A DNA stretch of 64,000 bases from a virus: the IMG/VR virus record IMGVR_UViG_3300044591_000896, positions 51,480-115,479 of that record; one strand, given 5' to 3'. The stretch's first letter is position 1, and each line of letters starts with the position of its first letter. The translations under genes were made by a program, and so were the position numbers. Of this stretch, positions 3,198 through 52,182 are shown in pieces. The notes below the pieces were generated by a model, which was not told where the DNA came from, did not search any database, and was given only the letters and a program-made list of their open reading frames with translations.

Positions 3198-3723
3198 CTG
3201 CGTCCTGAATTACTATTGCCTCCACTACGCCAGTAATCTGGGATAGCCTTTTTGCAACATCCATTTTACACTTAGGACAAGATGCAGTTACTTCTTTTAA
3301 TATACCTACTAGTATTTCTTGCTTACGTTCTGTCTCTGCAATTTGTGATGCTATCTGTGTATTCTCTAGAACTCCAACAGATTGAAGCATGGCTATTCTT
3401 TTAGTCTCTATATCTGCAATTAGTTTTAGTGCTCCCGCCTTAACACTAAGCTGCCCGCTTTGATCTGCGTCTTCTACGGTCTTCCAGGCCTCTTTAATAA
3501 GCATTGCATAGTGTTGGTCAGCACCAGAGATTGCTTCTCTTGCTCTATCTCTTATATTAGAATCATTGTGTACGACTGTCTTCCACTCATCAATAAACTC
3601 TAGGACTTCTTTTCTAGAAAATCCTGTAGCTGCTGCTATCTGCGTGGCTGAATTTCCCTTGAGTAATTCCTCAACGACTTTATTCATTCGGTCAAAATGT
3701 ACTGCTGGCTCTATATCGCTCAT
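3187..3723 (-). CDS. HTH protein, probable terminase small subunit
   Basis: N-terminal HTH (SATQIAAATGFSRKEV), helical body, directly upstream of terL. Confidence 0.6.
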   Translation of the reverse strand: MSDIEPAVHFDRMNKVVEELLKGNSATQIAAATGFSRKEVLEFIDEWKTVVHNDSNIRDRAREAISGADQHYAMLIKEAWKTVEDADQSGQLSVKAGALKLIADIETKRIAMLQSVGVLENTQIASQIAETERKQEILVGILKEVTASCPKCKMDVAKRLSQITGVVEAIVIQDADVV

Positions 3724-14052: not shown

Positions 14053-14072
14053 TTCCGCCGTTTTCTATTATG

Positions 14073-14145
14073 TACCAAAGGTGGGATTCGAACCCACGCT
14101 GTATAGATTTTAAGTCTACCGCCTCTACCGCTGGGCTACTCTGGC
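14073..14145 (-). tRNA. tRNA-Leu(UAA), short variable loop
   Basis: Acceptor GCCAGAG/CTTTGGT, anticodon arm GTAGA-CTTAAAA-TCTAT, T arm GTGGG-TTCGAAT-CCCAC, discriminator A. Confidence 0.88.
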
Positions 14146-29403: not shown

Positions 29404-29879
29404 TATACTTCCTCCAGCGTCATTGATATTGTCCAGAAAGAATGTAATCCACGCTTTTGTAAGACTGCGGAAAATTCTGTAAACGATACTGTATATACTT
29501 CTCCTGTATTGACATTGTCTTCTGCGGCACCAGACTTTGCAAAATTTAATAGTATTCTAAATGTGCCCTTGCCCTCTTCGCTTGCATAAAATCTTCTTAG
29601 ATCTTCTGCCCCAAGGTTTCCGTCTGCCGTATGTGTTCTTGTAGTTGGTAGCATATTCCAAGACATGCTAAATGTTTTTTTATCAGCAATAAAAAATTTT
29701 CTGAGGGTTCCGTTAGCCATTCTTTGAACTTGCTGGATTCTATTTGAGCCTACAGTTATTTCTGATCTATTGTGGTCAGATATTTTTAGCCAAGTTAAAG
29801 TGGTGCCTGGTACAGTGGCAAGAACATCCTTGCCCTCTATTTGTAGCCCTACGCCTTTAGGTAATTTTGTATAACCCAT
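29403..29879 (-). CDS. Distal-tail-like protein
   Basis: Immediately after the TMP; RMANGTLR...WNMLP...TLEEV. Confidence 0.65.
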   Translation of the reverse strand: MGYTKLPKGVGLQIEGKDVLATVPGTTLTWLKISDHNRSEITVGSNRIQQVQRMANGTLRKFFIADKKTFSMSWNMLPTTRTHTADGNLGAEDLRRFYASEEGKGTFRILLNFAKSGAAEDNVNTGEVYTVSFTEFSAVLQKRGLHSFWTISMTLEEV

Positions 29880-32800
29880 TATGCTCTAACCTCCAATCCA
29901 CTTCCTAGTGATCTACTTTCTCCCATAGATTTAACTGATATCTTGCTCATTGTCTTCATAGACTCAACTGTTTTTCTTGTAACCATATCAGATAGTGCAT
30001 TTATGTCACCATCAAATCCATTAATATTATTTGTAATGTTATATACGCCTCCACCCATTGTAGCATTATTAGCATTAGGATTAAAGGGGTTCATGTTAGC
30101 AGGAACTACTGCTTCATTCTTATGAAGCATCGCAAGCATATCTGCTGGGACATTATTAATTCCAGTTTCAAATTTAGGAATGTTGAATTTTCCTCCAGCC
30201 ATTCCTCCTTCTGCAAAATGCCCAGCCTTTAAGAATGGCAAAACCTTACCCAATCTTTCTTTTTGATCAGCAGCTCTCGTAACAATTTCTGTTAGTGTTT
30301 TTTCTAATTCTGATGATATTTTAGTAAATCCCACTTTGCTTAAGTTCAGGGAATCAAAAAATCCTAGATCTCTTCCATCTAATATCTTTTTAAATCCAGA
30401 TACTACTTTTTGAGGAGCTAAAGATGCTACAACTGGGTGGGACACAGAATTTGTATTTCTTCCACCTTCATGAACTATTGTGTCAATAAGGTATTTAAAT
30501 CCTTTTGGACCTAGCTTGGTAAAAGCTAGCCTTAAATTCTCTCCTTGCAAGAAGCTATCTCTTGCTCTACCAAGTGAGCTAAATGCTTGACCAGGTATTC
30601 TTTCTCCTGCCAACATCAGTCTTGCAGTTTCCATTCCGTGAGTTTTAGCTAAAAACGATTCTAGAGCTGCATAGGCTCTTTTGCTTTGAGACCAAATTGA
30701 TTTCTGTCCGCCACGTAAATCTAAAGTTTTTCTTCCAGTAAGTTTTTTGAAAAACATTTCATATATGTTTCCAGCTTCTTCGCTAAACACATTAACCGTA
30801 TTTTTAGTTTTTGAATATGATGAAGACATTCCTTTTGAAGCTGTGGTAAACAAATCAAAGTCAAAAAGGTTTCCGAACATGCTGTGCTTAGCAGCAAACA
30901 TGTCATCTACTGCATTTCCTAAAACACCAGGTACTGATCTATCTAAAAGTGTTTCTGGAAGTATGCCTCCATGATAAAAAGGACGCATTGATAGCTCTTT
31001 AAGTGTTTCAAACATTTCTGGTCCTGAGCTTGGATCAACTGCTGAAGGTGACCAGCTTCCTTCTCTTCCACCCATTTCTAATATTTTTCTAGCTTTCATT
31101 GTTCCATATGGGGTGTATCTGTATAAGAAATTTGATATAGCTTGCTTTGGATTAAATGAAGATTTTGCTGGCAATATAAATTCTTTAAAGAATTTAAATG
31201 AATTCTTTTTAGCATCAATGCCAGAAGTTATTTTTGACTTTACCTTGCTTCCAATTTTAGCAATAGGATTTAAAGTTGTCGCTTTAGTTAAATTAGATAG
31301 TAGCCCAAAAAGTTCACCAAAGGCTTCCTGAGGATTTGTCTTACCAACATTGCTTAGGTCTGCCCAATCATCCCAAGCCTTTGCTCCTCCAGGAGCACCA
31401 GTACGAGATGGTAGAATACGAGGACGATTTGTAATATCGTCAAAAAAGCTTTTGCCTGTTCTTCTAACATAATCGGCTGTATTAGTAAATACAGATGGAA
31501 CCCCCTTTGGACTATAAGGTCTAAAGCCAGCAATTTTAGGTATTTTATACAACGCCTCTTTGCCTACTTTTGTTGCGCCAACTGTTTTCCATAACACAGA
31601 CCTTAGAGTATTTAATATGCCTTTAGGCGTTTGTTGTACGGCTCTTAGTGCTGCTGATCCCAACATCTTTGCAGATGGTGCAGCAACATCTAGTGGGTAC
31701 TTTGATATAGATTTTGCTGCTTTGGTTTTGCCTACAAGGAAGTTGAGGGGGAATAACGCAGCATTTGCATAGTCACCCTTATTTGGTTTTCCAAAGAATT
31801 CGCTTTCTTTTCCTCCTCGAAAAATTTTATTTCCTGTTTGCATTAATCCTTTTATACCTAATGCGTCAAGCCAAGGTACTGAGAATCCCCTAAACAGTCC
31901 ATCTCCAACTGCTGGTCCATAAGAATAAGGAGAGTTGTTGGATGAACTTTTATTTTTAGATTGGCTTTCAGTATAAACTCCCTTATCAATATATCTAGCA
32001 TTAAGCTGATCAAGAGTCATTCCCTTTGTATCTATTACACTGATACCAAATCCACCACTCAACTTATCATAAACATAATGTTTTTTTCCATCAAGCTTTG
32101 TCCATTTAGGCGCTGACATCACATTTGTTGAGTCGTGCTTATGACCTACTGGACCACCGTCATGGAACCCTTTTATCCTGCCTAGTGGATGATTTTTGAC
32201 TCCAGTATAGAATGGAGCAAATTGTCCAGCAGTTTCATTGCCAATCATGTACTTGGTTCCAATGTATCCGTCTTTCATAGCTGCTTGGACTGCTGGATGA
32301 TTAAATTTTACTCCATACATACCTTCTGTAAGACCATACTTTTTTGCCATATCTGTAGAGCTAGCAAACCCTTTACTTTTTAATATTGTCATTATGGCTT
32401 TAACATCTAGCTTTGTCTTATATGAGTTACTACCGTATCTTGGATTTCCAGCTTGATACTTAGGGCTTGATGAAAAGTGTGTAAAGTTTCCTAAAGTTTG
32501 TTCTTTTTGAGCCTGGTATTCGAGTGGATGTAAAAGCTCATCAGCTAGGTTTGGATTTGGGGAATTATGGACTCCCTGCTTCATAAGCTTAAGTGCTTCT
32601 AGTTTATTTCTAGTAGATCTGATGGCTCTGGTTGGCCTAATAAATGGAATTATAGATGCGTAGTCCATAGCTCCAGCGTTGCCTTGTGCAATTCTTCCAG
32701 CTGTGTTGTACATTGAAATTTCTTTTAATGCCTCTAAAGCAGTAGCGTTCTTTTCTGACTGGCTTAAAGATGTCTTGTATTCTGGTGCACGGTAATCAAG

Positions 32801-35800
32801 TTTTTTTGCTCCATGGTTTTGCATTCCAGTAACATAAGCACTTCCTGCATTACTAAACCAATTTAATGGATTAAATCTTGACAGCCAGCCACCTTCTGCA
32901 AACCCAGGAATCATTCCGCCTTTATTTAAATATCCTGAGTTTATTGGTGAGGGTGACCCTAATCCAACTGGGCCACCACCTGCAAGCTTTTGAGCATTTA
33001 GTCCATCAAAGAAACTAACTCCATATTGCTTTACAGCTTTTTCTTTAATTACATACTCACCATTTGAAAGCCAAGCTGGAATAGAATCAGATGTTCCAGT
33101 TCCTGGACCCTTTACATTTCCACCCCACTCAAAATTCTTAACTGGTCCTCCTGTAGCATAGGATCTAAATCCAACATTAGGAATATTGTATCCCCAATAT
33201 CCAACTACTTTTCCTCCCTTTGTTACAGAACCATTGTGCTCATATTTTAATCCGTCTTGAACAAGAGGAGTTTTTACTCCTTTATTGTAAAGTGCTAGAT
33301 TTATGTCTTGCACTCCGTTAAGCGCACCACGATTTACTTTGCTATTTGGATATATATAAGCTTCTCCAGACATAGGCTTTTCTGGGTTCTCAAAGTACTT
33401 TGCTCTTCCTTTAGCTCCTTTGCCAACAGATTTTCCATCTGCTGTAAAGTATTCCATTTTATTATAATCATTAGGATTTTCTGGGTCTTTTTTAATTTCT
33501 CCACGAAGCTTGCTTAAAGGTATAGTTCTTGTTCCATTAACCTCATCTAATCCAGTTAATGTTTTAACATACAAACCAAAGTCTTCAACGTGAGTGCCAA
33601 ATTTTTCAAAATAAGTTTTAGCATATTCTACTGTTGAATTTGCTGGGCCACCAGGATCATTTGTTAATGATTTAAGATACGCTACCCAGTCTTGTTTACC
33701 AGGCTGTACTATAGGCTGGCCTCCTGGCGTTACTATTGTTGATCCCTTTGATGTTGGAACTCCGCTTGTTACGGTTTTAGCAGCTTTTGCACCATCTGAT
33801 CCAAGCGCTGCTAAGGCAGCTACATCTGAGCGAAGTGCCTCAGCAAGTAAAGCAATTGTTCCTTCGTCTGTTGTAATTGCTGCTTTAGATAAAGTTGTTG
33901 CAATGCTCTGCTGCAATGCTTGTACTGACGCATATTCTTTTTGCTTAGCGTTAGCTATTTCCTGTAACTTGTTTGCTCGCTCTTGAAGCTTAATAAGTCT
34001 CTCTTGAACACCAGCTTTTTGAGCCTCAAGTTTTTTAACTTCTGCATCTCTCTTATCTTGAATTGCATTTATTGATAGTGTTTTTTGTCTTTCGTTTGTT
34101 AAGCTTTGTATATTAAGCTGGGATTGTGCTGCACGAGACATATCGCCAGACAATAATGCTTGCTGGTAGTTTAGTTGCTCTTTTTGAACCTCTGTTAAAT
34201 AGTCTTGCTTTTCTGCTTGATCTTCAATGGCACGTATTCTTGCATCTGCTTCTTCATTGATTTTTTCTATCTTTTTATCAAGAGCTTTTATTTCTGCATC
34301 TGCATTCTTTTGAGCATTCTTTGTTGCATCATCTGATGCCTTTTTTGCATCATCGTATGCTTTCTTTGCAGCTGCTCCGTATTCTGCAATTGCATCAATT
34401 GGGTTATTCATTAAATTAGCATTTGTTGTCATCTCTGTTGCTGCTTGAGATATAGCGTTTACAACCTGTAGTAGTCCTTGAGCCTCTTCTCCACTTATAT
34501 CAGAAAGGTCTGCTGTGACTCCATTTGTATATAACTGTATTTTTGCCCAAGCATCAACCATGCTATCAGTTGAATTTAATATGTCTTTATATAGTGGGTT
34601 TTCTTGTATAAGTGTATTTAATATATTGTCGCCAATATCTTGTTGATTAGATTTGTTGGCATTCATGTGGGCTATAGTGTCATTTAAAGCTTCTACTTGT
34701 GACTTTGCTTTTCCGCTAGCATCTTTTACCCCTACTAAGCTTTGGTAATAAAGCTGTATTGCATCTAATCCACCGCTAAATGATGCTGCAATTTCTTTTT
34801 TATCAACATCGGAAGCATTCATTGACTTTACAAAAGTATCTATTGCTACCTTTGCTGCTGAGGCTCTATCGACTATCTTTAAAAATTCTGTTGATGATAC
34901 AGCCTCTGTAGCCTGTGAAGCTTTATTTGAAATAGATATAATGCTGTAAATTTCTCTTGCTGCATCCTGTGCTGATTTTCCTGCTGCAACTAGCTGAACC
35001 TTTAGTGCTGTTGCTGCTTTTGTAACATCATTTTTATCAAGGTCATTAAACATAGACACAATATCGCCTTGTGTCTCTTTGGCTTTCTTTTGTAATGCAT
35101 TAAGTTCTTTTACGGACATATTAATTCCGCCGCCAATTGCAGTAGATCCCGCTGCCTTTACCTTAGTTAATTGACTTTGTGCTTGTGCTGCATCTGTTGC
35201 CTTTTTTATTTTATCAGTTAAACTTACGTATGCAATTCCAAGTTGTTTTGCTTGCTTTTCATTTACATCAAAAGCTTCTTGAGAGGCAAGTCTTGCCTTT
35301 CTTGCATTCTCCCACGCTCCATAAGATACTGTTGCAAGTGTTGTAAGTGCTACTACTGCTACCTTACCCCAACCAGGAATTGCCATTCCAACTAATCTTA
35401 GTTTGGCTAAGCTTTGTGCAAATTTACTAACGCTCTTAGTTGCTACTGCGGTTTCTGCGGCATCGTCTACAACACTACCTGCTGCTTTAGCAGCCTTTGC
35501 AGCCTTTGCAGTTTTTACACCCTTGTAAATTGATCCAGCAGTCATTACTGCAAATATTCCATTTAGAATAAGGTTTGATTTTTCGCTGGCGATTCCCAAC
35601 TTCTCTAAAGCTTTTGGCAATAACATGAATGCAGCTAATGGCAAAGCTTGCTGTGCTACAATGCTTGCAACTGGACCTAGTGCTCCATAATTATACTTTC
35701 CAGTTCTAATCATTCCGCCTAATGCATGGTTAGGAACAATACCTCCACTGTTCATAGGAACAAATAGCTCTGGCCCCTTTTCTCCAACTATGTAAGGTGT

Positions 35801-38800
35801 GCCACCAGATACAGGTCCGCCCTTTTCTCTGCCCTCTAAGCCAAATATTAATTTCTTTAGCTCTTCTGTTAATGGAGTATCTTTTCTAGATTCCCAATTT
35901 GTGTATCTTCTCTTAAGAATATCTCTATCTATTGCAGATAATACTCTTCTTCCTTCTGGTGCGGAAATTGTAGAAGACGCAGCTGATCTAATGACTGAGT
36001 CCATAATGTCTGGCTCTAGTGCTTTTAATAATTGTCCTTGTGCATTTTTAGCATAGCCATATGGCATTTCTTTTGCAAGTGCTTCTGCAAACTTGTCATA
36101 AAGAATTCTTTGTGTTCTCTTTGTTAATCCGCTAGAAGCAAATAGCTTTTCTGCCATTCCTATTTCTAGTGATGTTACTCCCCATCCGCCAGTTGTATTC
36201 TTGCCAAACCCTGCACCAATTCTACGCATAGCAAGAGATTTAATAACATTGATTAATCCACCGCCATTAAATCCATTAGCATCAGATTTAAATGCCATAT
36301 CACTTAGGCTTACAGCGTGGCCTTTTTGTCTTGCTCTTAATGCTGCAGCTTCTTCTAATTTAGCAAGCGCTGCTGGTGTTAATGATTTTGGAGCTGTTGG
36401 TTTGACTGCTGAATGTATGCCATGAAACTCTTTCCAGTTTACATGCCTTGCATCTTCAAGTCTTTTTATCATTGCAGCATAAACTTCTTCTTCTCTTGGA
36501 GTTAGACCTTTAAAGCCAGCAATTGTTTCTTTTAGTCTAGGAAGGACTTCATCAATTTCATTAAGCATCGATTGCTGATATTGCTGAGGGGTCATTCCTC
36601 TTGGAATGTCTACTGTTGATTCTGCAAAAAATCTCTTTGCTCCGCCCTTTACGCCAAGTAAATTAATTCTTGCTTGTTCTGCAACTGATGGCATATCGTC
36701 TGCATATGATCTTAAACCAGAAGCTGTTTTAAATACACCCATAGTTCCGCCGTCTGCAACAAAACTTCCTCCAATGTTGCCAGGTGATAAGTCTTTATCT
36801 CCTCTTAATGCTGATGCAAGTAACTGCTGGAAGTACTCCTGCTCTGACATTTCTTTTGGTAAGCTTGCAAATCTTGGATCATAAGGTGATTCAAGAACAA
36901 GAAGCTTTCTTTTACCTGCTGGATCTGTTGGGTCTATCATTACCCTTATTTCCTGCTGAGGAGGTGTTAATCTATGTGCGCCTTGGTGTATTGCATTATA
37001 TCTTTGCTCAGCAAGTGCAGCAGTTTCATCAAGGACTGGCTTAACAAATACTCTTGTTCCATCTGGCTTTGTGTATACTCCGCCCACTCCTTCAACTGGG
37101 AAGCTGTGTCCTTTTGTATCTTCTTCTTTCTTTCCAAAGTTAGTTGGTTCTTCTTTTGCAAAACGACTCTTGTTAACTGCTTCTGTCGTCTGCTCCATAA
37201 CCTCTCTACGTTTTCTTTGCTCTTGAACCTGCTTAATTGATTTAGGCATTCCAAGGAATAATCTTCCATAGTTAGCTTTTCTCTTTTTAATGATTCCGCC
37301 CATTGCAAAGCCATCAAGCATCATATGAGCAAATGCTCCATCTTCACCATTAATCTTTAGTTCTTTAGGATTATATGTTTCATAAGAGCCCATAAAGTTT
37401 GTACCAAACTCTTCATTTTTTGTTATTAAAGTATCAAGATCAGATGTTCTATATGGACTTATTGCTGTTGCACCCTGAAATCCAGAGGAGTGGTTTCCTG
37501 GATCTTTGAACCCTCTTCTCTGCCCAGGTACATTTAAAGAATCAATATATCTTTTTCTTAGCCCTAGCTGATCTGCTATTTTAAGGTACTCTGCGTGTTG
37601 AGCTTGTGCAAATAGTCTTTCTCCAATAAGCGAGTCTCCATGTGATGCAAGATTTGATACGATACCGTCTCTTGCCTCTAGCACAAGTCTATCAGCCAAC
37701 TCGTCATCTATTTTATTTACTTTTAAAAATCTTCTTAGTGCTGGTAGTGCCTCTGAAGGGGGAAGGAACATTATGTCATCTATTATTTCTTGTGGCTTAG
37801 CTGTCCCCGCATTTATCTTTGAATTTGTTGTTTTTCTAGTATTCAGTCCCCAGTTTCCAACAAAGAAGTATCCATTTTTATTTCCAAGAACTCCTCTTCT
37901 TGGTGCAGCAGCTCCAAATACGCCTTCAACATAATCATGAGCATCATCTGCGTCAGTTCTATGCTCTCTTCCAAGCCTTATTTGTGGCGAAAGGTTTGCT
38001 AAATCATCTGCTGACTTTGCTTTCTTTCTTTTAAACAAACTCTTTAATGCATCAAATCTTCCATAGTTGTGCTTGCCAGAAACAATTGGTCCGCCTAAGA
38101 TTCCGCCTGCATTTCTAAATTGAATTCTTTGTCCGTTATTTGCTGCCTCTAGTATAGGCAACATCTCTTGTGTTTGTTCTGGTGTAAATACTGTCTCATA
38201 TGGAGTCAGCATTGCATCAATCATTCCGCCACGGTTATATGGCTTACTCTTTTTTGCATATTCCACTAGCTGTGGATTATTTCTTGTTGCATCTTGATTT
38301 AATACAAAACCACCAACTGGTATTTTTGCCATTGTGTTGTCATAGTTTACACTCTTGTCACCAGGTACAACTGGGCCATCTTCTAATGTGTATACATATC
38401 CACCATCATTAAAGCCTCTAAGTGGACCTCTCTTTGGAAGAATAATTCTTGGCTTAGTTGTTTCTATGCTGTATCCGCCGCCAGAAGTTCTAACACCTAA
38501 TCCTTCTGCAACCTTATCGACAAGAGCTGCTGTCTCTGGCTTATGGAACATTTCTTTCATGTTGGACTTGCCAGTTACTGGATCAACCACTGGCTGGCTA
38601 GTAAATGGTACTGTAGTTAGATTTATTCCTCTTCCCATACCAGCGGCAACCTGTGCAGCTGTTTCTGCCATCATAACTTCAATGGTTGCATTTAATGAAA
38701 TAATTTTTGCTCTTGCTTGATCTACAGTGATTACACCTTGCTGTAGCTGTCTTACAATCATAGCTCCTTCATCTGCAGCCAATTGTGTGAGCTGTTGCAT

Positions 38801-41158
38801 CTGTGGAAGCATTGCTTGGTATACTGAAGATAACTCATGTGTAACTGTGCCAGTTGCTGCTACTTCGGTCTTTAATAATGAAAGCTCTGCTTGTGACTGT
38901 GTAGCAATTGCTGCTGTCATAGCATGCCATTTAGCAGCTTCTGCAGCTACGATTCCCGTAGAAACTCCACTTATAGATGTTACGCCAGGAACTCTTGGAA
39001 GATCCTGATCCATATACATCTGTGGGTTGTTGCTTACTCTAACATTTACTGGACCTGGGTTTGGAACAACGCCAAATATGGTTCCTGGCTGCTGTATAGC
39101 TGCAGGTATGGTGTGTGCAAATTGTCTGCTATAAGGAGCCCCTATAAACTTGCTATCTTTATCTGCCATTCTTTCTGCATTTGCTGCAACGCCTGTTGGA
39201 GACAATACTGTTGCTCCACCCATTGTACTTATACTTGAGCTTGTTGCAACTGCTGAATTTAATGCGCTTGCCTTCAATCTATCAAATGACGCTGCAAGAT
39301 TATTAACTGCTGTCTCTAATGCTATTGCAGCTTGTGCATCACTAAAGAATGATTTTTCTACAACCTTACCAGCTTCTGCTGCTGCCATCATTTCAGGTGT
39401 TAATAATTTAAATCCTGAGCCACCCTTAAATAATTGCTTTAGATGGAATACTCCCTTGATAATATATCCAAGGAAGTTTCCAAGCACACCAGTAAGCATG
39501 ATAAGTGGTCCTGCAAATGCTGTTAGTCCACCAAGGAATGTCAGTAATGACTTGATTGGTCCTGGTAGATTTTCTACAAACTTAATTATTCCGCTGATTG
39601 TTTTTAATACAAATGTGCTTATCTTTAAGAACTGATCACCGACGCCTGCAAGTTCTGCCTTAATTGTTTCAAGTGCTCTTTTGTATTGTCCAGATGCAGA
39701 CTCTGTCATAGCCTTTAATTCTCGGTCTGCTATACTTGCTAGCTCTTCTGTGCTTGCTTTCATCAAATCTAATACTTGTAAAGTTTGTGAGCCCTCTTTT
39801 CCAAGGTTATTAAATAAAGCTCCCATACGAGCAAACTGGAATTTTCCAAAAAGTTGCTCAATTGCCTGAGCTTTTTGTAACGGATCTAGCTTATCTAATG
39901 ATGCTTGTAGTGCTAATATTGTTGCAGTTACATCTCCAGCATTACTCTTTACAATTGATCCAAGATCAATTCCAAATCCCATAAACATTTCTTTTGCAAC
40001 TTTAGTTGGGTTAATAAGTGATGCAAGAGATGACTTAATGGCATTAGCACCTTCTGATGCATTTACTCCGCCTTCTTTCATTGCAGTTAAATAAAGAGCA
40101 AGATCTTGAACGTTTCCACCAAGAGATTCAATTACTGGTCCTGCTTTTGGAATTGCTTCAACTAAATCCGCAAGAGATGTTGAGGTCTGGTTTTCAACTG
40201 CGTTAAGGAAGTTAATTGATTGTGCTAACTCATCATTGCTTTGTTTAAATGCATTTTGAATAGCAAGAGTTGCTTTCATTGCATCTTGTCTATCTACTTC
40301 ACCAAGGATAGAAAGTCTTGTTGTTTCTTGCGTTGATACAAGCAGGTCATTTCCTTGCTTGCCAGTTGCTGCAATATCCGCTGCTAATGCGATTGTTTCT
40401 TTATATGATGCACCATAGATAGACGCTAATTCTTTTGCTGTCTCCTCGACATCTTTTCTAACTTGCTTTAGTTCTGCAGAAGATGTTTCTGCTAAACCAC
40501 CGTAAACCTTTGTAAGTCTAACTAGCTGCTGGTCTGCTTCTAGGAATGCTTTTTGTGCTGCCGCACCAAATGCCATCATTGGAACTGTTAATCCAACTGT
40601 TAACTGGCGTCCTGCCCACTGTGTATTTTTACCCCAGTTGATAAGCTGGTTGGATCCATCAAGCATCACCTTGTTAAGAATTGATGCCTCTTGTCTTAAT
40701 AAAGCAGTTCTATTTTTTAAAAGATCTAGTCCATTAGCTACGTGGACATTGTATTGCATTTGCCCCTGGGCATTTCTTCCCAGGGGTTGCAATACAGCTT
40801 GTTCCATTAATACTTGCTGCTTAGCAAGATCTTTAATTAATGTACTTGTTTTTCTTGTGTGTCCTTGCCAGACTCCAAAGTACTCGCCAAGTTTCATTCG
40901 GCCAGTATCTAGCCTCTTTCCAAACTTTTGTACATCAGATTCAAGTGTTACAAAGTGTGAAGAAAATTGTCCAGTTGCTCGCATTGTTTCGGCAAATGAA
41001 CGATTCATTCTGCCTACTTCATTAGATAGGTTTCTATCTAATCCAATGGTTGTAGCTTGAAGTTTAACTAACTCGGCGGTTACGGCTCTTAACTGCGCTG
41101 TTAAACTTGAAAAGTTTGCCGTCGCAGTTATGTTCGTATTAATATTTTGTTCAGCCAA
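29879..41158 (-). CDS. Tape measure protein (3759 aa) with inserted globular domains
   Basis: Follows the frameshifted chaperone; TP901-type TMP core, hydrophobic segments, coiled coils, GPGTGTSDSIPAWLSNGEYV and VGEKGPELFVP motifs. Confidence 0.93.
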   Translation of the reverse strand: MAEQNINTNITATANFSSLTAQLRAVTAELVKLQATTIGLDRNLSNEVGRMNRSFAETMRATGQFSSHFVTLESDVQKFGKRLDTGRMKLGEYFGVWQGHTRKTSTLIKDLAKQQVLMEQAVLQPLGRNAQGQMQYNVHVANGLDLLKNRTALLRQEASILNKVMLDGSNQLINWGKNTQWAGRQLTVGLTVPMMAFGAAAQKAFLEADQQLVRLTKVYGGLAETSSAELKQVRKDVEETAKELASIYGASYKETIALAADIAATGKQGNDLLVSTQETTRLSILGEVDRQDAMKATLAIQNAFKQSNDELAQSINFLNAVENQTSTSLADLVEAIPKAGPVIESLGGNVQDLALYLTAMKEGGVNASEGANAIKSSLASLINPTKVAKEMFMGFGIDLGSIVKSNAGDVTATILALQASLDKLDPLQKAQAIEQLFGKFQFARMGALFNNLGKEGSQTLQVLDLMKASTEELASIADRELKAMTESASGQYKRALETIKAELAGVGDQFLKISTFVLKTISGIIKFVENLPGPIKSLLTFLGGLTAFAGPLIMLTGVLGNFLGYIIKGVFHLKQLFKGGSGFKLLTPEMMAAAEAGKVVEKSFFSDAQAAIALETAVNNLAASFDRLKASALNSAVATSSSISTMGGATVLSPTGVAANAERMADKDSKFIGAPYSRQFAHTIPAAIQQPGTIFGVVPNPGPVNVRVSNNPQMYMDQDLPRVPGVTSISGVSTGIVAAEAAKWHAMTAAIATQSQAELSLLKTEVAATGTVTHELSSVYQAMLPQMQQLTQLAADEGAMIVRQLQQGVITVDQARAKIISLNATIEVMMAETAAQVAAGMGRGINLTTVPFTSQPVVDPVTGKSNMKEMFHKPETAALVDKVAEGLGVRTSGGGYSIETTKPRIILPKRGPLRGFNDGGYVYTLEDGPVVPGDKSVNYDNTMAKIPVGGFVLNQDATRNNPQLVEYAKKSKPYNRGGMIDAMLTPYETVFTPEQTQEMLPILEAANNGQRIQFRNAGGILGGPIVSGKHNYGRFDALKSLFKRKKAKSADDLANLSPQIRLGREHRTDADDAHDYVEGVFGAAAPRRGVLGNKNGYFFVGNWGLNTRKTTNSKINAGTAKPQEIIDDIMFLPPSEALPALRRFLKVNKIDDELADRLVLEARDGIVSNLASHGDSLIGERLFAQAQHAEYLKIADQLGLRKRYIDSLNVPGQRRGFKDPGNHSSGFQGATAISPYRTSDLDTLITKNEEFGTNFMGSYETYNPKELKINGEDGAFAHMMLDGFAMGGIIKKRKANYGRLFLGMPKSIKQVQEQRKRREVMEQTTEAVNKSRFAKEEPTNFGKKEEDTKGHSFPVEGVGGVYTKPDGTRVFVKPVLDETAALAEQRYNAIHQGAHRLTPPQQEIRVMIDPTDPAGKRKLLVLESPYDPRFASLPKEMSEQEYFQQLLASALRGDKDLSPGNIGGSFVADGGTMGVFKTASGLRSYADDMPSVAEQARINLLGVKGGAKRFFAESTVDIPRGMTPQQYQQSMLNEIDEVLPRLKETIAGFKGLTPREEEVYAAMIKRLEDARHVNWKEFHGIHSAVKPTAPKSLTPAALAKLEEAAALRARQKGHAVSLSDMAFKSDANGFNGGGLINVIKSLAMRRIGAGFGKNTTGGWGVTSLEIGMAEKLFASSGLTKRTQRILYDKFAEALAKEMPYGYAKNAQGQLLKALEPDIMDSVIRSAASSTISAPEGRRVLSAIDRDILKRRYTNWESRKDTPLTEELKKLIFGLEGREKGGPVSGGTPYIVGEKGPELFVPMNSGGIVPNHALGGMIRTGKYNYGALGPVASIVAQQALPLAAFMLLPKALEKLGIASEKSNLILNGIFAVMTAGSIYKGVKTAKAAKAAKAAGSVVDDAAETAVATKSVSKFAQSLAKLRLVGMAIPGWGKVAVVALTTLATVSYGAWENARKARLASQEAFDVNEKQAKQLGIAYVSLTDKIKKATDAAQAQSQLTKVKAAGSTAIGGGINMSVKELNALQKKAKETQGDIVSMFNDLDKNDVTKAATALKVQLVAAGKSAQDAAREIYSIISISNKASQATEAVSSTEFLKIVDRASAAKVAIDTFVKSMNASDVDKKEIAASFSGGLDAIQLYYQSLVGVKDASGKAKSQVEALNDTIAHMNANKSNQQDIGDNILNTLIQENPLYKDILNSTDSMVDAWAKIQLYTNGVTADLSDISGEEAQGLLQVVNAISQAATEMTTNANLMNNPIDAIAEYGAAAKKAYDDAKKASDDATKNAQKNADAEIKALDKKIEKINEEADARIRAIEDQAEKQDYLTEVQKEQLNYQQALLSGDMSRAAQSQLNIQSLTNERQKTLSINAIQDKRDAEVKKLEAQKAGVQERLIKLQERANKLQEIANAKQKEYASVQALQQSIATTLSKAAITTDEGTIALLAEALRSDVAALAALGSDGAKAAKTVTSGVPTSKGSTIVTPGGQPIVQPGKQDWVAYLKSLTNDPGGPANSTVEYAKTYFEKFGTHVEDFGLYVKTLTGLDEVNGTRTIPLSKLRGEIKKDPENPNDYNKMEYFTADGKSVGKGAKGRAKYFENPEKPMSGEAYIYPNSKVNRGALNGVQDINLALYNKGVKTPLVQDGLKYEHNGSVTKGGKVVGYWGYNIPNVGFRSYATGGPVKNFEWGGNVKGPGTGTSDSIPAWLSNGEYVIKEKAVKQYGVSFFDGLNAQKLAGGGPVGLGSPSPINSGYLNKGGMIPGFAEGGWLSRFNPLNWFSNAGSAYVTGMQNHGAKKLDYRAPEYKTSLSQSEKNATALEALKEISMYNTAGRIAQGNAGAMDYASIIPFIRPTRAIRSTRNKLEALKLMKQGVHNSPNPNLADELLHPLEYQAQKEQTLGNFTHFSSSPKYQAGNPRYGSNSYKTKLDVKAIMTILKSKGFASSTDMAKKYGLTEGMYGVKFNHPAVQAAMKDGYIGTKYMIGNETAGQFAPFYTGVKNHPLGRIKGFHDGGPVGHKHDSTNVMSAPKWTKLDGKKHYVYDKLSGGFGISVIDTKGMTLDQLNARYIDKGVYTESQSKNKSSSNNSPYSYGPAVGDGLFRGFSVPWLDALGIKGLMQTGNKIFRGGKESEFFGKPNKGDYANAALFPLNFLVGKTKAAKSISKYPLDVAAPSAKMLGSAALRAVQQTPKGILNTLRSVLWKTVGATKVGKEALYKIPKIAGFRPYSPKGVPSVFTNTADYVRRTGKSFFDDITNRPRILPSRTGAPGGAKAWDDWADLSNVGKTNPQEAFGELFGLLSNLTKATTLNPIAKIGSKVKSKITSGIDAKKNSFKFFKEFILPAKSSFNPKQAISNFLYRYTPYGTMKARKILEMGGREGSWSPSAVDPSSGPEMFETLKELSMRPFYHGGILPETLLDRSVPGVLGNAVDDMFAAKHSMFGNLFDFDLFTTASKGMSSSYSKTKNTVNVFSEEAGNIYEMFFKKLTGRKTLDLRGGQKSIWSQSKRAYAALESFLAKTHGMETARLMLAGERIPGQAFSSLGRARDSFLQGENLRLAFTKLGPKGFKYLIDTIVHEGGRNTNSVSHPVVASLAPQKVVSGFKKILDGRDLGFFDSLNLSKVGFTKISSELEKTLTEIVTRAADQKERLGKVLPFLKAGHFAEGGMAGGKFNIPKFETGINNVPADMLAMLHKNEAVVPANMNPFNPNANNATMGGGVYNITNNINGFDGDINALSDMVTRKTVESMKTMSKISVKSMGESRSLGSGLEVRA

Positions 41159-45928: not shown

Positions 45929-46999
45929 TTAAGAAGCAACCTTAACGTTCTTTACAACAACCCAAGCGTCTGCCTGCTCGATTTGAACGCCAACACGAGT
46001 ATACATTGTGTACTCGATTGAGTCCTTACGTGGCCAGAAGAATCGGTAAACTGTAACGTCACGCTTGATACCAATAACTACGTTATTTGGGAATGTCAAG
46101 TGGATGTCACCGTGTGAACCTGATGCTCCTGAGTATGAGCCTGTCTGAACTTCTGGAAGAAGTGGAACTTCAACGATTGGAATACCAAATGCGTATGGAG
46201 CTACATATCCTGCAGGACCAGAAACTGGTGCAACCTCACCACGGATGATGCCTGAAGCAATATCTTGTGGGTTAACGTTCTGGATGTTCTGTGATGTTGA
46301 GTATAAGTAATCCTGGATCAAGTTTGAACCTGATAGGAAGCGGAGGTCTGTACGACGCTGCTTGTACTTACGTGGAAGAGCCTTAAGAGCTGAGTTGAAC
46401 ACTGCACGAGAAATTCCCGCACCAGCTGCATCAACAACGTGACCGTTAGCCTTTGCCTTCTTAACTACACCGTCAAATGACTTATAAAGTGCATCTGATG
46501 ATAGTGCTGTATCGCCATTTAGAAGAAGATCTTCAATGTCGTTACCAGCTTGTGTTGCCATCATTCTGGCAATGTGATCTTCGAGATCAGCACCTTCAAT
46601 GTTGTCTTCTAGTGACTCAGTTGAAAGCTCCCAATCTAAACGAAGCTTCTTTGTTGTTAGAGAGATCTTTGAGAATGTCACTGGTGCGTTAACGCCTGTG
46701 TTCTCTGCTTCAGTTGCAAGCTTAACAAGCTTCTCACCAACTGACATGCGGTCAATCTCTGTTGTATCAGACTTCATTCGGACCGTACGTGCAACCTTAC
46801 CAATTACGGTAGCGTCGAACATATAATCTAAAAATCTTGCTGACTGCTCTGGGTTTAGAACACCACCGTTGCCATTTTCTGACGCAACGTGATCTCCTGA
46901 ACCACCTGTTGCAGATGCGAAGGTACCGTTAGCGGACTGTGGTCCACCAGCGATTGTTGTACCTGCTGCTGCTGCCTTTTCTAATAATTCATTACTCAT
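45929..46999 (-). CDS. Major capsid protein (HK97 fold)
   Basis: GGVLNPEQSARF, ESLEDNIEG, DIEDLLLNGD; follows protease/scaffold; strong RBS. Confidence 0.92.
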   Translation of the reverse strand: MSNELLEKAAAAGTTIAGGPQSANGTFASATGGSGDHVASENGNGGVLNPEQSARFLDYMFDATVIGKVARTVRMKSDTTEIDRMSVGEKLVKLATEAENTGVNAPVTFSKISLTTKKLRLDWELSTESLEDNIEGADLEDHIARMMATQAGNDIEDLLLNGDTALSSDALYKSFDGVVKKAKANGHVVDAAGAGISRAVFNSALKALPRKYKQRRTDLRFLSGSNLIQDYLYSTSQNIQNVNPQDIASGIIRGEVAPVSGPAGYVAPYAFGIPIVEVPLLPEVQTGSYSGASGSHGDIHLTFPNNVVIGIKRDVTVYRFFWPRKDSIEYTMYTRVGVQIEQADAWVVVKNVKVAS

Positions 47000-47016: not shown

Positions 47017-48330
47017 TTAGTTAAAGATTTCATTTACGGAACCGAGGAAAGAACCGTTCCATTTTGATTTAGATTTTGTTACTACTTCAGACCCGCCGAG
47101 GTCTGAAGACTTCTTAATTGCTGTTTCGCCTTCTACGGCATCAACACGCTTCTGAACACCGTCAATAGTGCCCTTTATTTCTGTTACTGCTGCGCTTAGT
47201 GCGCTGTGCTTCTCTGCTAACTCTGAAATTCTAACATCGACATTCTTGCTGAATGCTTCAACAGATTCTTTGATCTGTGAAACTTGTGCAGCATTTGCCT
47301 CTGTAGCCTTTGAAAGTGTGTCCGAGAAAAAGCCCTTTAGGTCGCCCAACATTTTTGCAAAATCAGGTGTATCAACCTCTGCTGTGGCTGCTTCTTCAAC
47401 GGAGTCGGCAGGAGCGTCTACTACTGCAGCTTCTGCTACAGGAGCATCTTCTACAATAGCTTCTACAACAGCTTCAACAGCTGGTGCTTCTTCTAGTACG
47501 TCTACAGATTTTTCAATTACTGTCTCATTTTGTACGTCTGACACTTCATTACCTCCTTCTACGTTTGCCTGTTTTGCTATTTGTGTATCAGGCAACGCTA
47601 ATCTTGTCTTCTTGAATGAAGCAAGAATCTTATCTATTTCTTTTGACTTGTTTATATCTGATGACTCAACCCAGCCAATTAGAGTAGCTGGCTTTCCAGA
47701 TATTGGTGAGTCAAATGTTTTTTCTGTTGATATAAATACAGAATCACTTTCTTCGCAATAAAAAATATTTTCAGCAACTACTTCTGTTGCTATTCCCTTA
47801 TAGACCATCTTGCCACCAACTTTTTCAATAGAAAAAATGTTACATAGTTCATTTGCTGGTGAATCGACTATTGATAGCTCAACAAGATCATAGTCTTTAA
47901 TAAATCTTACTTGCTCTCCAGTTGCCTTGTTAATCTCATTATCTGATTCGTTAATTTTTCCGCCAATTGAAAAACCAGAAAGAGTGCCATCAAGAACTTT
48001 TTCCCAAGTATCTTGTGCACCCTTTGAAATGTATGAAGTTACATAGACTCCATTATAAAATGTTTGTGATTTTTGATCGTAGTATGTCTCTGGCTTAAAT
48101 CCAATAACCTTGCCTACTGCAATTGACTGATGCATCTCTCTAAGATTTCCACGGAAATTTTCAAATGCCTTCATACTTGCTTCTGCTGTAACAACGTCGC
48201 CTGTTTGGTCAACATTGTCTAATGTTGCAAATCCTGATACAGTTCTCTGTTCACGGTTTACTTTTGTAAAGGGTACTGAGAGATGGAGTTTTTCTCCATC
48301 ACTAGACCAGTTAGACTTTTCGATAATCAT
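47017..48330 (-). CDS. Prohead protease fused to scaffold
   Basis: LREMH, GFSIGG, ELSIVDSPAN; acidic Ala/Glu linker and coiled-coil C-terminus. Start MIIEK lies 7 nt after TAAAAT. Confidence 0.9.
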   Translation of the reverse strand: MIIEKSNWSSDGEKLHLSVPFTKVNREQRTVSGFATLDNVDQTGDVVTAEASMKAFENFRGNLREMHQSIAVGKVIGFKPETYYDQKSQTFYNGVYVTSYISKGAQDTWEKVLDGTLSGFSIGGKINESDNEINKATGEQVRFIKDYDLVELSIVDSPANELCNIFSIEKVGGKMVYKGIATEVVAENIFYCEESDSVFISTEKTFDSPISGKPATLIGWVESSDINKSKEIDKILASFKKTRLALPDTQIAKQANVEGGNEVSDVQNETVIEKSVDVLEEAPAVEAVVEAIVEDAPVAEAAVVDAPADSVEEAATAEVDTPDFAKMLGDLKGFFSDTLSKATEANAAQVSQIKESVEAFSKNVDVRISELAEKHSALSAAVTEIKGTIDGVQKRVDAVEGETAIKKSSDLGGSEVVTKSKSKWNGSFLGSVNEIFN

Positions 48331-48383
48331 ATGCTTAATTTTATAGGTATATATATCAAAAGGCAAATAGCAGTTGAGTAAAG

Positions 48384-50367: not shown

Positions 50368-52182
50368 CTATGAGTTCTGGAGAACCACCCAGTCATTATC
50401 ATAGTACTCTACAGAACTTTCGGTCATTCCGATGCCAGAATCATAGACTACTGCAGTTGCTCTGCCTATATACAATGAATAATTATATAAACATTCAGAT
50501 ACATTAAACTGCTTCTCATACAGGGTTATATTTTGATACAGAGACTTTGGGCCAGAACCATTAAACTCTATATCTCCAGATACTGGTGTTCTTAGTACGA
50601 CTAGAATATGATACATATTGCCAGGCTCAAAAACCGTTGATATATTTGAATCAAATATCTTACTTACTCCATTGACATAGAATCTCAAAATGTTACTTCC
50701 TATGCTTATTTGACCTGAGCTATTCCATGAAATTCCGTCAACAATGGATCCCGCAATTCTGGAGTTTGGGGTATAAAACATTTCTATCGTATTTATTTGG
50801 CTGGAGGTGTTGATGAAGAATCCTGAACCAGCCTCTACATTTACTCCGCTTCTTGAGTCTCTAGTCAAAATAGGATATCTTCTATTACCAATTCCAATAT
50901 TGTTATCTCCTGGATATAGGTAGTCTTGAGAATTGTTTGAATACTCTTTATTGTCGGCATACATTTTAACTATGAGATACTCTAAAGATGGTATATATCT
51001 AGATGTATCTTCAGATGTAAATACTATTTTAATGTAAAGCTTTCTTGATTCACTAAAGTCTGTTGAGGTATATTTAGGTATCACTGAGTTGTTTTCACAC
51101 GGCTCAAATGCTATTCCGTCTGTACTTGAAAATACTGTTATTCCATTGTCTCCCGCCCATTCTATTTTTGAAGAAGTTGGAGAAAGAGAGTATGGGATAT
51201 ATATCATGTCTACTATTTCAACAACAGAGTTTTCTGCAGTATCTGTTTTAGATATAGAAAGTGTTTTTTTAGATGTGTTGTGATCAAGACCATCTACTAA
51301 TATATCTGACCAATCTTTATCTACTGGGTATCTAAAAACAAAATCTGTCATATAGTTACTGTCATTGATTTCAAAAGCTTTTCCATTTAATGGACCATAG
51401 ACATCTAAAGGTCTTGTTGATACTGCATTTAAATAATGGTTTTTAATTTTAACATCTGTTAGTGCGTATCTGTATATCGCTAGGCCATTTACTAAAAAGT
51501 AGTTGCTGCTATTTTCAGTTGGCCCGCATAGCAAAGACAAATTAGAATTTGTAAATTTAAAGTTTTCAATGTCTATCGATGAAACCAATTCTCCATCTAC
51601 ATAAAGCATTGCGGAGTCTTTGTTGTACACTGCAGCTAGGTAGTAAGCCTTCTTTTTGTATGGCAAAGTATATTCAATAGTATTTGTATTTAGCTTAAAA
51701 AGAATATTGCCTTTATGATAGAACAATCCTACGCTATTTAATGAATCTCCAATTAATGGTATTGGGTCAGACTCTAAAGCATTGATTGAAGGGTATATAA
51801 AAATTTCAAAAGAAAATGTATTATCAGAGAATGTATCTTTTGCAAATCCGCCTTTAACAATTTCTCCGTTGTATCCTCTTGCATTATTTATATTAATAGA
51901 TGCAACGCTATCTATTTTTATTGCATATGGGTCACCGTATACTAAAGGTATAATATCTGACTTTACTTCTCCTGAATAGAATCCGTTATTTTGGCAACCA
52001 GAAATATCGACAACTGCATTTCCAGAGTCTAATGAGTAGTTCGCAAATGCAGCTTTAAATTCCTCATATGTATTATAATCATTCAATACATCTTGGTAAG
52101 ACGGAATGCTAAATGCTTCTGTTATTGCACCGCTATAATATACTATTGGGTTGTCTGCTAAGACAGAGTATTTATATGACAT
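50368..52182 (-). CDS. LamG/concanavalin-like domain virion protein
   Basis: VLADNPIVYY, FSFEIF, LAAVY...LYVDGEL, LAIYRYALT...IKNHY. Confidence 0.7.
   Translation of the reverse strand: MSYKYSVLADNPIVYYSGAITEAFSIPSYQDVLNDYNTYEEFKAAFANYSLDSGNAVVDISGCQNNGFYSGEVKSDIIPLVYGDPYAIKIDSVASININNARGYNGEIVKGGFAKDTFSDNTFSFEIFIYPSINALESDPIPLIGDSLNSVGLFYHKGNILFKLNTNTIEYTLPYKKKAYYLAAVYNKDSAMLYVDGELVSSIDIENFKFTNSNLSLLCGPTENSSNYFLVNGLAIYRYALTDVKIKNHYLNAVSTRPLDVYGPLNGKAFEINDSNYMTDFVFRYPVDKDWSDILVDGLDHNTSKKTLSISKTDTAENSVVEIVDMIYIPYSLSPTSSKIEWAGDNGITVFSSTDGIAFEPCENNSVIPKYTSTDFSESRKLYIKIVFTSEDTSRYIPSLEYLIVKMYADNKEYSNNSQDYLYPGDNNIGIGNRRYPILTRDSRSGVNVEAGSGFFINTSSQINTIEMFYTPNSRIAGSIVDGISWNSSGQISIGSNILRFYVNGVSKIFDSNISTVFEPGNMYHILVVLRTPVSGDIEFNGSGPKSLYQNITLYEKQFNVSECLYNYSLYIGRATAVVYDSGIGMTESSVEYYDNDWVVLQNS

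Follow-up and report, generated by a model that had tools for sequence, protein, structure and literature searches.

The tape measure proteins (TMPs) of siphophages fill the lumen of the tail with their C-terminus at the tip; their expulsion precedes that of the DNA, and they become inserted in the host cell envelope (PMC10770324, PMC13277306). In phage P23-45, a TMP of 5002 residues carries the virion RNA polymerase that transcribes the pre-early genes (PMC10770324), and the TMP-related effectors of injection systems in Actinobacteria have swappable functional domains (PMC13277306), a source that also cites an Rpf-like motif in the TMP of mycobacteriophage TM4. The polyvalent proteins of phages and plasmids are large, have several domains and are believed to enter the host along with the DNA. 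They contain predicted kinase or protein-modifying domains, including a kinase clade whose defining trait is that the entire C-terminal subdomain of the kinase has been lost, and which is found in phages and prophages of Verrucomicrobia, Chlamydia and Bacteroidetes (PMC5512222). Here we describe a putative kinase cassette embedded in the TMP of an uncultured virus. The window, that is, the whole stretch of 64,000 nucleotides that was analysed (positions 51,480 to 115,479 of IMG/VR record IMGVR_UViG_3300044591_000896), is part of a complete genome of 115,479 bp with direct terminal repeats, and the cassette lies within a TMP gene on its minus strand. No description of a kinase within a tape measure protein turned up in the literature searched.

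The kinase-like cassette and its conservation

The single open reading frame (ORF) at 29879-41158 is a phage tail tape measure protein, judging from its family matches and its place in the genome. The Pfam family PF10145 (PhageMin_Tail) matches residues 239-438 with an E-value of 8e-25, and tape-measure families of PHROG match residues of about 10 to 850 (best E 4.6e-124). The gene has the portal, head protease, major capsid protein, head-tail adaptor and an Ig-domain tail protein upstream and minor tail proteins downstream, in the same position and with the same order of neighbours as in Streptomyces phage Bmoc. A sequence-only reading of the window had placed a HipA/PI3K-like kinase domain inside this protein, at 36380-37150, with a series of kinase motifs in the correct order and the motifs FAMGG and FNGGG as its bounds. 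The whole series is present in that order, in the one frame of the TMP gene and at the positions then given; the two bounding motifs also exist, and both lie outside the proposed interval. The features are as follows, in window coordinates and TMP residue numbers:

29879-41158, minus strand: TMP gene (P0001), a single ORF of 3759 codons
37295-37309, minus strand: upstream linker FAMGG, residues 1284-1288, an in-frame motif
36269-37294, minus strand: predicted kinase cassette, residues 1289-1630, about 340 residues between the linkers FAMGG and FNGGG
36395-37165, minus strand: predicted folded protein-kinase-like core, residues 1332-1588 (model residues 44-300), the range aligned by VIA-align to CotH, PI4KIIalpha, MavQ, HipA and others
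37103-37111, minus strand: G-x-S (G1350, S1352), just before the Gly-rich loop
37073-37090, minus strand: Gly-rich loop GVGGVY, residues 1357-1362, between the first two strands of the model
37040-37051, minus strand: VFVK, residues 1370-1373, with the putative ATP-anchoring Lys1373 of beta3 at 37040-37042, inside model strand 81-87
37004-37015, minus strand: LAEQ, residues 1382-1385, with the putative helix-C Glu1384 at 37007-37009, inside model helix 90-105
36776-36802, minus strand: putative catalytic loop GDKDLSPGN, residues 1453-1461, with D1454, the catalytic D1456 and N1461 (D-x4-N), directly after model helix 151-164
36746-36757, minus strand: ADGG, residues 1468-1471, with a putative metal-binding D-x-G (D1469, G1471) that replaces DFG, after the short model hairpin 174-179
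36257-36271, minus strand: downstream linker FNGGG, residues 1630-1634, an in-frame motif

The conservation of these positions was read from a MAFFT alignment of 131 homologous domain copies, with 28-87% identity to the query, and from a second alignment of 56 rows (A2), which also served as the input for AlphaFold2. In the larger set, G1350, S1352, G1360, K1373, E1384, P1400, Q1445, N1461 and D1469 are identical in 131 of 131 copies, D1456 is kept in 130, G1471 in 128, Y1362 of the Gly-rich loop in 127 and D1454 in 125, with Asn in the remaining six. The same pattern appears in A2, where the exceptions are a Gln at E1384 (L004), a Val at D1456 (P0103), one Gly at the position of S1352 and two Asn at that of D1454. 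The full catalytic set is kept, namely the Gly-rich loop, K1373, E1384, D1456-x4-N1461 and D1469-x-G1471. Such a motif pattern is far beyond chance, as judged by the invariance across the 131 copies, and the conserved positions would be exactly those that define an active protein-kinase-like enzyme: a Lys with its Glu partner, D-x4-N and D-x-G. That the catalytic residues stay invariant down to 28% identity argues for selection on the chemistry. The Lys, Asp and Asn singled out by the sequence-only reading are hence conserved in homologues, and the kinase assignment stands on this point. As for the catalytic loop, which had been likened to a D-x-H/x-x-x-N pattern, the universal Asp-x4-Asn does exist in D-K-D-L-S-P-G-N, without the His of DRH or D-x-H.

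A kinase fold is also what structure prediction returns. The AlphaFold2 model of residues 1289-1630, built from A2, has a mean predicted local distance difference test (pLDDT) score of 86.8 and a predicted template modelling score of 0.78, with a pLDDT of 82-87 over the five models. In the numbering of the model, strands 55-59, 72-75 and 81-87 are followed by helix 90-105, strands 115-120 and 130-137, helix 151-164, a loop with a short hairpin, and a helical lobe that extends to about residue 295. Each catalytic residue falls in its expected secondary-structure element, with the conserved Lys in the third strand, the Glu in the first core helix, the D-x4-N directly after helix 151-164 and the D-x-G after the hairpin, and the helical C-lobe (helices 204-295) aligns with the C-lobes of solved kinases. 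An exhaustive VIA-align comparison with 48,161 PDB representatives gave kinases only among the top 50 neighbours, with Z-scores of up to 11.4, and the top 50 hits of Foldseek against the PDB were again all kinases, at weak E-values (2e-3 at best). From the model and the motifs taken together, residues 1289-1630 very probably form a self-contained protein-kinase-like (PKL) domain with an intact active site.

Structural neighbours and sequence families

The best structural match of the model is CotH of Bacillus cereus (5jda, Z 11.4), with 219 aligned residues at a root-mean-square deviation of 3.9 Å and 7% identity. Behind it come PI4KIIalpha (4hnd, Z 9.8, and another entry of this protein at 9.6, with 4pla in the group of Z 9.6-9.8), Legionella MavQ (7m7a, Z 9.7), a golgi casein kinase (4kqa, Z 8.9), a Fam20C-type kinase (5yh0, Z 8.7), HipA (4pu3), ATM (8oxm) and PI4KIIIbeta (8q6f), these three at Z 8.6, CtkA (3akj, Z 8.3) and actin-fragmin kinase (1cja, Z 8.1), with RIO, Bud32, aminoglycoside and canonical protein kinases at about 6-7. 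CtkA has the top Foldseek TM-score among the PDB hits, and a protein-language-model search places the domain near clusters bearing LepB_N, with a feature similarity of 0.94. The module thus appears nearer to the atypical branch (CotH, Fam20, PI4KII, MavQ, HipA, CtkA) than to the canonical kinases, and protein and lipid kinases match the model about equally well, which would leave either a protein or a lipid as its class of substrate. The earlier label of a HipA/CtkA/PI3-4K-like kinase is roughly right at this level of the fold, where atypical kinases reach Z-scores of 8-11 and canonical ones of about 6, but it does not hold as sequence membership of HipA or of PI3K/PI4K.

At the level of sequence, the domain has no Pfam match at E <= 1 or <= 10, and neither do 14 of its homologues; it has no PHROG match, and a search of PDB sequences (phmmer and profile) gave chance matches only, to an MLKL helix bundle and to a designed repeat protein. 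Several known families were considered and rejected. The CotH hidden Markov model (PF08757) finds no match in the genome at E <= 10; PF00454, for PI3K/PI4K, finds none at E <= 10, and the loop D-K-D-L-S-P-G-N lacks the His of DRH; for HipA (PF07804), aligning the family profile (A3) with E. coli HipA in hhalign gives a probability of 0.3%, and there is no Pfam match; LepB_N (PF18640) has no match at E <= 10 and is linked to the domain by language-model feature similarity only. Finally, membership of the polyvalent-protein kinase clade (PMC5512222) is ruled out by the helical C-lobe of the model.

The comparison with each of these groups shows both likeness and difference. CotH shares the PKL fold with its Lys, catalytic D-x4-N and metal-binding Asp, and is an atypical kinase of the bacterial world, whereas it is a stand-alone spore protein and the module described here is embedded in a phage TMP. 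PI4KIIalpha, MavQ and the PI3K/PI4K enzymes have in common with the module a loop of the G-x-x-G-x-Y type, a V-F-x-K-P lysine strand and a D-x-G motif, and are set apart from it by their DRH histidine. HipA, HipT and CtkA (4pu3, 5k98, 7ab3, 3akj; Z 7.9-8.6), the PKL variant named by the sequence-only reading, show structural similarity only, and the histidine of their D-x-H-x-K-N is missing from the module. In the case of the polyvalent kinases, the likeness is that of a predicted enzyme domain in a large phage protein thought to enter the host with the DNA, whereas these kinases lack the C-lobe and tape measure proteins are not mentioned in their description (PMC5512222).

In summary, the module would represent a new sequence family, absent from Pfam and closest in shape to CotH, PI4KII, MavQ, Fam20 and HipA. 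What is new is a kinase-fold sequence family in a new carrier, the TMP; already known are the polyvalent-protein kinases (PMC5512222), the TMP-derived modular effectors of actinobacterial injection systems (PMC13277306) and kinase folds in other large phage proteins (BFVD). In the latter database, kinase-fold regions similar to the model occur in A0A6B9L6W7 (Mycobacterium phage Onyinye, 1340 residues), A0A6J5PWC9 and A0A6J5S481, proteins annotated as ADP-ribosyltransferase or portal protein, with Foldseek E-values of 4e-5 to 3e-3. Across the BFVD neighbours, the annotations are ADP-ribosyltransferase (including a mycobacteriophage protein), portal-fused and, in uncultured phages, PI3K/PI4K domain. 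Kinase-like cargo in virion-associated phage proteins may be more widespread than annotation shows.

Carriers of the cassette, genome setting and host

A full scan of 1.84 billion representative proteins found the module in 165 cluster representatives at E <= 0.001; for 141 of these, the E-value is 1e-30 or lower. Nearly all carriers are 2000-4400 residues long, the short ones being contig fragments. Of the 86 long proteins (>2000 residues) that were scored, 48 have the start of the module at about residue 700-800; in the others it begins near 1000-1370 and rarely elsewhere. A profile search among proteins of 151-1511 residues recovered metagenomic TMP fragments only, with no stand-alone cellular homologue, and a tblastn search with the domain turned up no counterpart in 50,697 phage records; no cultured phage record matches it. 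The kinase family was found only inside giant TMPs of uncultured phages.

When the core of the TMP (residues 150-700) was used as the query, at least 3949 related giant TMPs were retrieved. The kinase is present in 102 of the 120 closest and absent in 18, which align with the query over residues 1-1033 (one of them to 1315) and resume at about 1638 or 1777, with unrelated sequence in between. The kinase-less homologues part from the query near the cassette boundaries, and they delimit the following region:

35828-38059, minus strand: variable cargo region of the TMP, residues 1034-1777, from the alignment break and resumption in kinase-less homologues

A tree of the N-terminal 700 residues implies at least five gains or losses of the kinase, at least two of them forced by well-supported branches. 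Most homologues have a PGEAVIP...G-N-I-P-G-Y-x-K-G linker ahead of the conserved L-G-M-P start of the domain, and an N/D-G-F/Y-x-x-G-G motif comes after it in 20 of the 28 scorable homologues. Since it is present in most but not all related TMPs, and within a variable cargo region, the kinase behaves as an optional, swappable cargo cassette and not as a part of the length-measuring machinery. The segments at its two sides, module A (residues 1034-1283) and module B (residues 1635-1777), were considered as obligate partners of the kinase and rejected, as both occur without it in some TMPs; module A is restricted to close relatives (phmmer).

Other cargo is seen in the same family. Related TMPs carry wall modules far towards the C-terminus, either CHAP plus LysM or OmpA-like, at about residues 2670-2870 (2674-2869 in P0006 and 2678-2771 in P0008); at the equivalent place of the query TMP, residues of about 2650-2760, no recognisable domain was found. 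A metagenomic TMP fragment of 652 residues (P0150) contains a divergent kinase at residues 11-309, followed by a G-G-Q-I-P-G-M-Q-Y-F linker and a HAD-type acid phosphatase (PF03767, E 1.2e-6), a putative kinase-phosphatase pair within one TMP. Along the query TMP, motifs of the type hydrophobic-x-x-G-G and others like P-G-E-x-V-I-P recur, for example at residues 919-1030, 1284-1288, 1630-1634, 1805-1816, 2670-2760, 3001-3005 and 3651-3656. The P-G-E-x-V-I-P-like motif is usually single and near the C-terminus of a TMP. In homologous TMPs, the motifs G-G-x-I-P-G-x-Q-Y-F and G-N-I-P-G-Y-x-K-G border cargo modules. The hydrophobic-x-x-G-G and PGExVIP-like motifs may be cleavage sites, tube-binding pegs or recombination joints.

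Other features of the window are the following:

47017-48366, minus strand: head maturation protease (phrog_9427, E 9e-123)
45929-46999, minus strand: major capsid protein (phrog_1623, E 8e-92)
50368-52182, minus strand: ORF of 604 residues, just upstream of the portal at the place expected for the large terminase, without a PHROG match (E <= 0.001)
686-758, 1068-1142 and 14072-14145, minus strand: three tRNA genes, Arg(tct), Met(cat) and Leu(taa)

The order of head maturation protease and major capsid protein is that of Bmoc (Stanwilliamsviridae), which suggests a distant kinship between this uncultured phage lineage and the Stanwilliamsviridae.

The host is probably a low-G+C actinobacterium, as indicated by a WhiB protein, by the relatives of the TMP core and by synteny. 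The virus encodes a WhiB-family protein outside the window (G000:C1:43425-43598, minus strand), whose match to PF02467 (E 1.6e-11) is above the Pfam cut-off; WhiB is a hallmark of actinobacteria and their phages, and among the control genomes only Corynebacterium had a match. The TMP core and the synteny are nearest to those of Streptomyces and Gordonia phages, and 247 of the 256 cultured-phage records that match the core infect Streptomyces, Gordonia, Rhodococcus, Tsukamurella or Nocardia. The G+C content of the window is 35-41%. No kinase domain was found in the TMP of the cultured relative Bmoc. The lineage, of about 100-120 kb, abundant and uncultured, probably infects freshwater actinobacteria.

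Proposed delivery, place of action and alternative explanations

The reading that we favour is that of a PKL cassette with its catalytic set, carried in the virion, which would phosphorylate a host target early in infection. We give it a probability of roughly 0.6 as a whole. As for its parts, a real phosphotransferase activity of the predicted kinase is likely, whereas action after delivery from the virion, which is argued by analogy, is a tentative proposal with somewhat less than an even chance. The domain would most likely bind ATP-Mg and transfer phosphate. During infection, the TMP would exit first, followed by the DNA, and lodge in the host envelope; until then, the kinase would probably be carried in a non-native state within the tail lumen. 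Refolding would probably take place at the cytoplasmic membrane or within it, where ATP is available to the kinase, and a host protein, or possibly a membrane lipid, would probably be phosphorylated before any phage gene is expressed. The cassette lies between two hydrophobic segments, both defined by a Kyte-Doolittle mean over 19 residues of >= 1.5:

39446-39550, minus strand: hydrophobic, membrane-type segment, residues 537-571, N-terminal to the cargo region
35615-35674, minus strand: hydrophobic segment, residues 1829-1848, C-terminal to the cargo region

It is also more N-terminal than the wall-directed modules of related TMPs. A layout with wall modules toward the end that leaves first and an ATP-requiring module further back fits the order of delivery and is not proof of it.

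A virion-delivered enzyme acting before phage gene expression, as the sequence-only reading had proposed, is plausible by analogy with P23-45. The direct precedent is gp96 of this Thermus phage, a giant TMP with an enzyme that acts in the cytoplasm and that was shown experimentally to act on pre-early genes after delivery (PMC10770324), whereas it differs in having an RNA polymerase at the N-terminus instead of an internal kinase cassette, and in an unrelated lineage and host. The Rpf-like motif of TM4, as far as it is cited, and the CHAP, LysM and OmpA modules of TMPs are likewise enzymatic or binding cargo inside a TMP, whereas their targets are in the peptidoglycan, outside the membrane, where no ATP would be needed.

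Several points weigh against the favoured reading. The kinase assignment rests on a predicted model and on motif conservation, because searches with Pfam, the PDB, family HMMs and the HipA profile did not connect its sequence with any kinase family characterised so far. Within the model, K1373, E1384, D1456, N1461 and D1469 are equated with the catalytic residues of solved kinases from the order of the motifs and their secondary-structure context, not from a residue-by-residue superposition, and two spacings are short for the fold, with 11 residues from Lys to Glu and 8 from the Asn to the Asp of D-x-G. A folded domain of 340 residues should not fit the lumen of a siphophage tail, so delivery requires unfolding and refolding. 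Besides the P23-45 RNA polymerase, we know of no TMP-borne enzyme that acts in the cytoplasm, and the other cargo of the family has its target in the cell wall, on the outer side of the membrane, where ATP is absent. Finally, synthesis of the TMP takes place in the cytoplasm, so that a late action of the kinase, in the producing cell, would be just as possible.

This last point leads to the main rival, an unlikely alternative in which an active kinase works in the producing cell. The nascent TMP would phosphorylate components of the tail or of the TMP itself, as CotH does in spore-coat assembly, or late host proteins, and its presence in the virion would be incidental. It would agree with the role of CotH, the closest structural neighbour, as an assembly kinase for a large proteinaceous structure; ATP is certainly present at the site of TMP synthesis, and a folded kinase cannot sit in the tail lumen. 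However, 18 of the 120 closest TMPs do without the cassette and have unrelated inserts instead, which indicates that tail assembly does not need the kinase. Moreover, a purely late cytoplasmic function would hardly account for the fusion to the one protein that is expelled ahead of the DNA, and P23-45 offers a case in which an enzyme fused to the TMP is able to work once it has been ejected (PMC10770324).

Less probable again is a kinase of lipids or glycans, anchored at the membrane through the hydrophobic segments on either side; its substrate would be an envelope head group of the host, such as phosphatidylinositol, and the site of entry would be remodelled. Actinobacteria make phosphatidylinositol, and an actinobacterial host is likely. 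The best structural matches include PI4KIIalpha (Z 9.8 and 9.6), MavQ (9.7), PI4KIIIbeta, Vps34 and other PI3Ks, the LepB_N clusters are feature neighbours, some BFVD neighbours are annotated as PI3K/PI4K catalytic domains, and the cassette does lie between residues 537-571 and 1829-1848. Nevertheless, protein kinases (CotH, Fam20C, HipA, CtkA and actin-fragmin kinase) match as well or better, and neither PF00454 nor PF18640 gives a match even at E 10. The more specific version of this proposal, a membrane-tethered phosphoinositide-type lipid kinase that would be inserted with the TMP and phosphorylate phosphatidylinositol lipids of the host at entry, before phage gene expression, is improbable; if true, phage entry or takeover would for the first time involve a lipid kinase.

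Lower still in probability is a nucleotide-binding pseudokinase or conformational module, in which ATP or another ligand would act as a switch or scaffold for the folding of the TMP, its ejection or the formation of a channel, without phosphotransfer. Many PKL domains are indeed pseudoenzymes, and the Lys-Glu and Asn-Asp spacings mentioned above are unusually short, but such proteins typically lose at least one of the Lys, the catalytic Asp and the Asp of D-x-G, all of which are invariant or nearly so in the 131 copies. That a non-enzymatic TMP spacer resembles a kinase in its motifs by chance is scarcely credible despite the lack of any Pfam, PHROG or PDB sequence match, being already contradicted by the confident model, by top 50 structural neighbours that are all kinases and by an invariance that falls on exactly the catalytic residues.

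A last question concerns what virion delivery of a kinase, if true, would mean for these phages. Phage-borne kinases such as gp0.7 of T7 are made after infection. If a kinase were part of a protein that precedes the DNA out of the tail, there would be no lag before it acts, and host defences could be disabled or the cell redirected ahead of any transcription. The carrier family is large, with 165 representative clusters that have the kinase and at least 3949 related giant TMPs. The single experimental case of a TMP-fused enzyme acting in the cytoplasm, that of P23-45, would be extended to a general principle of cargo, and the tape measure protein would become a modular delivery platform with swappable enzyme cassettes.

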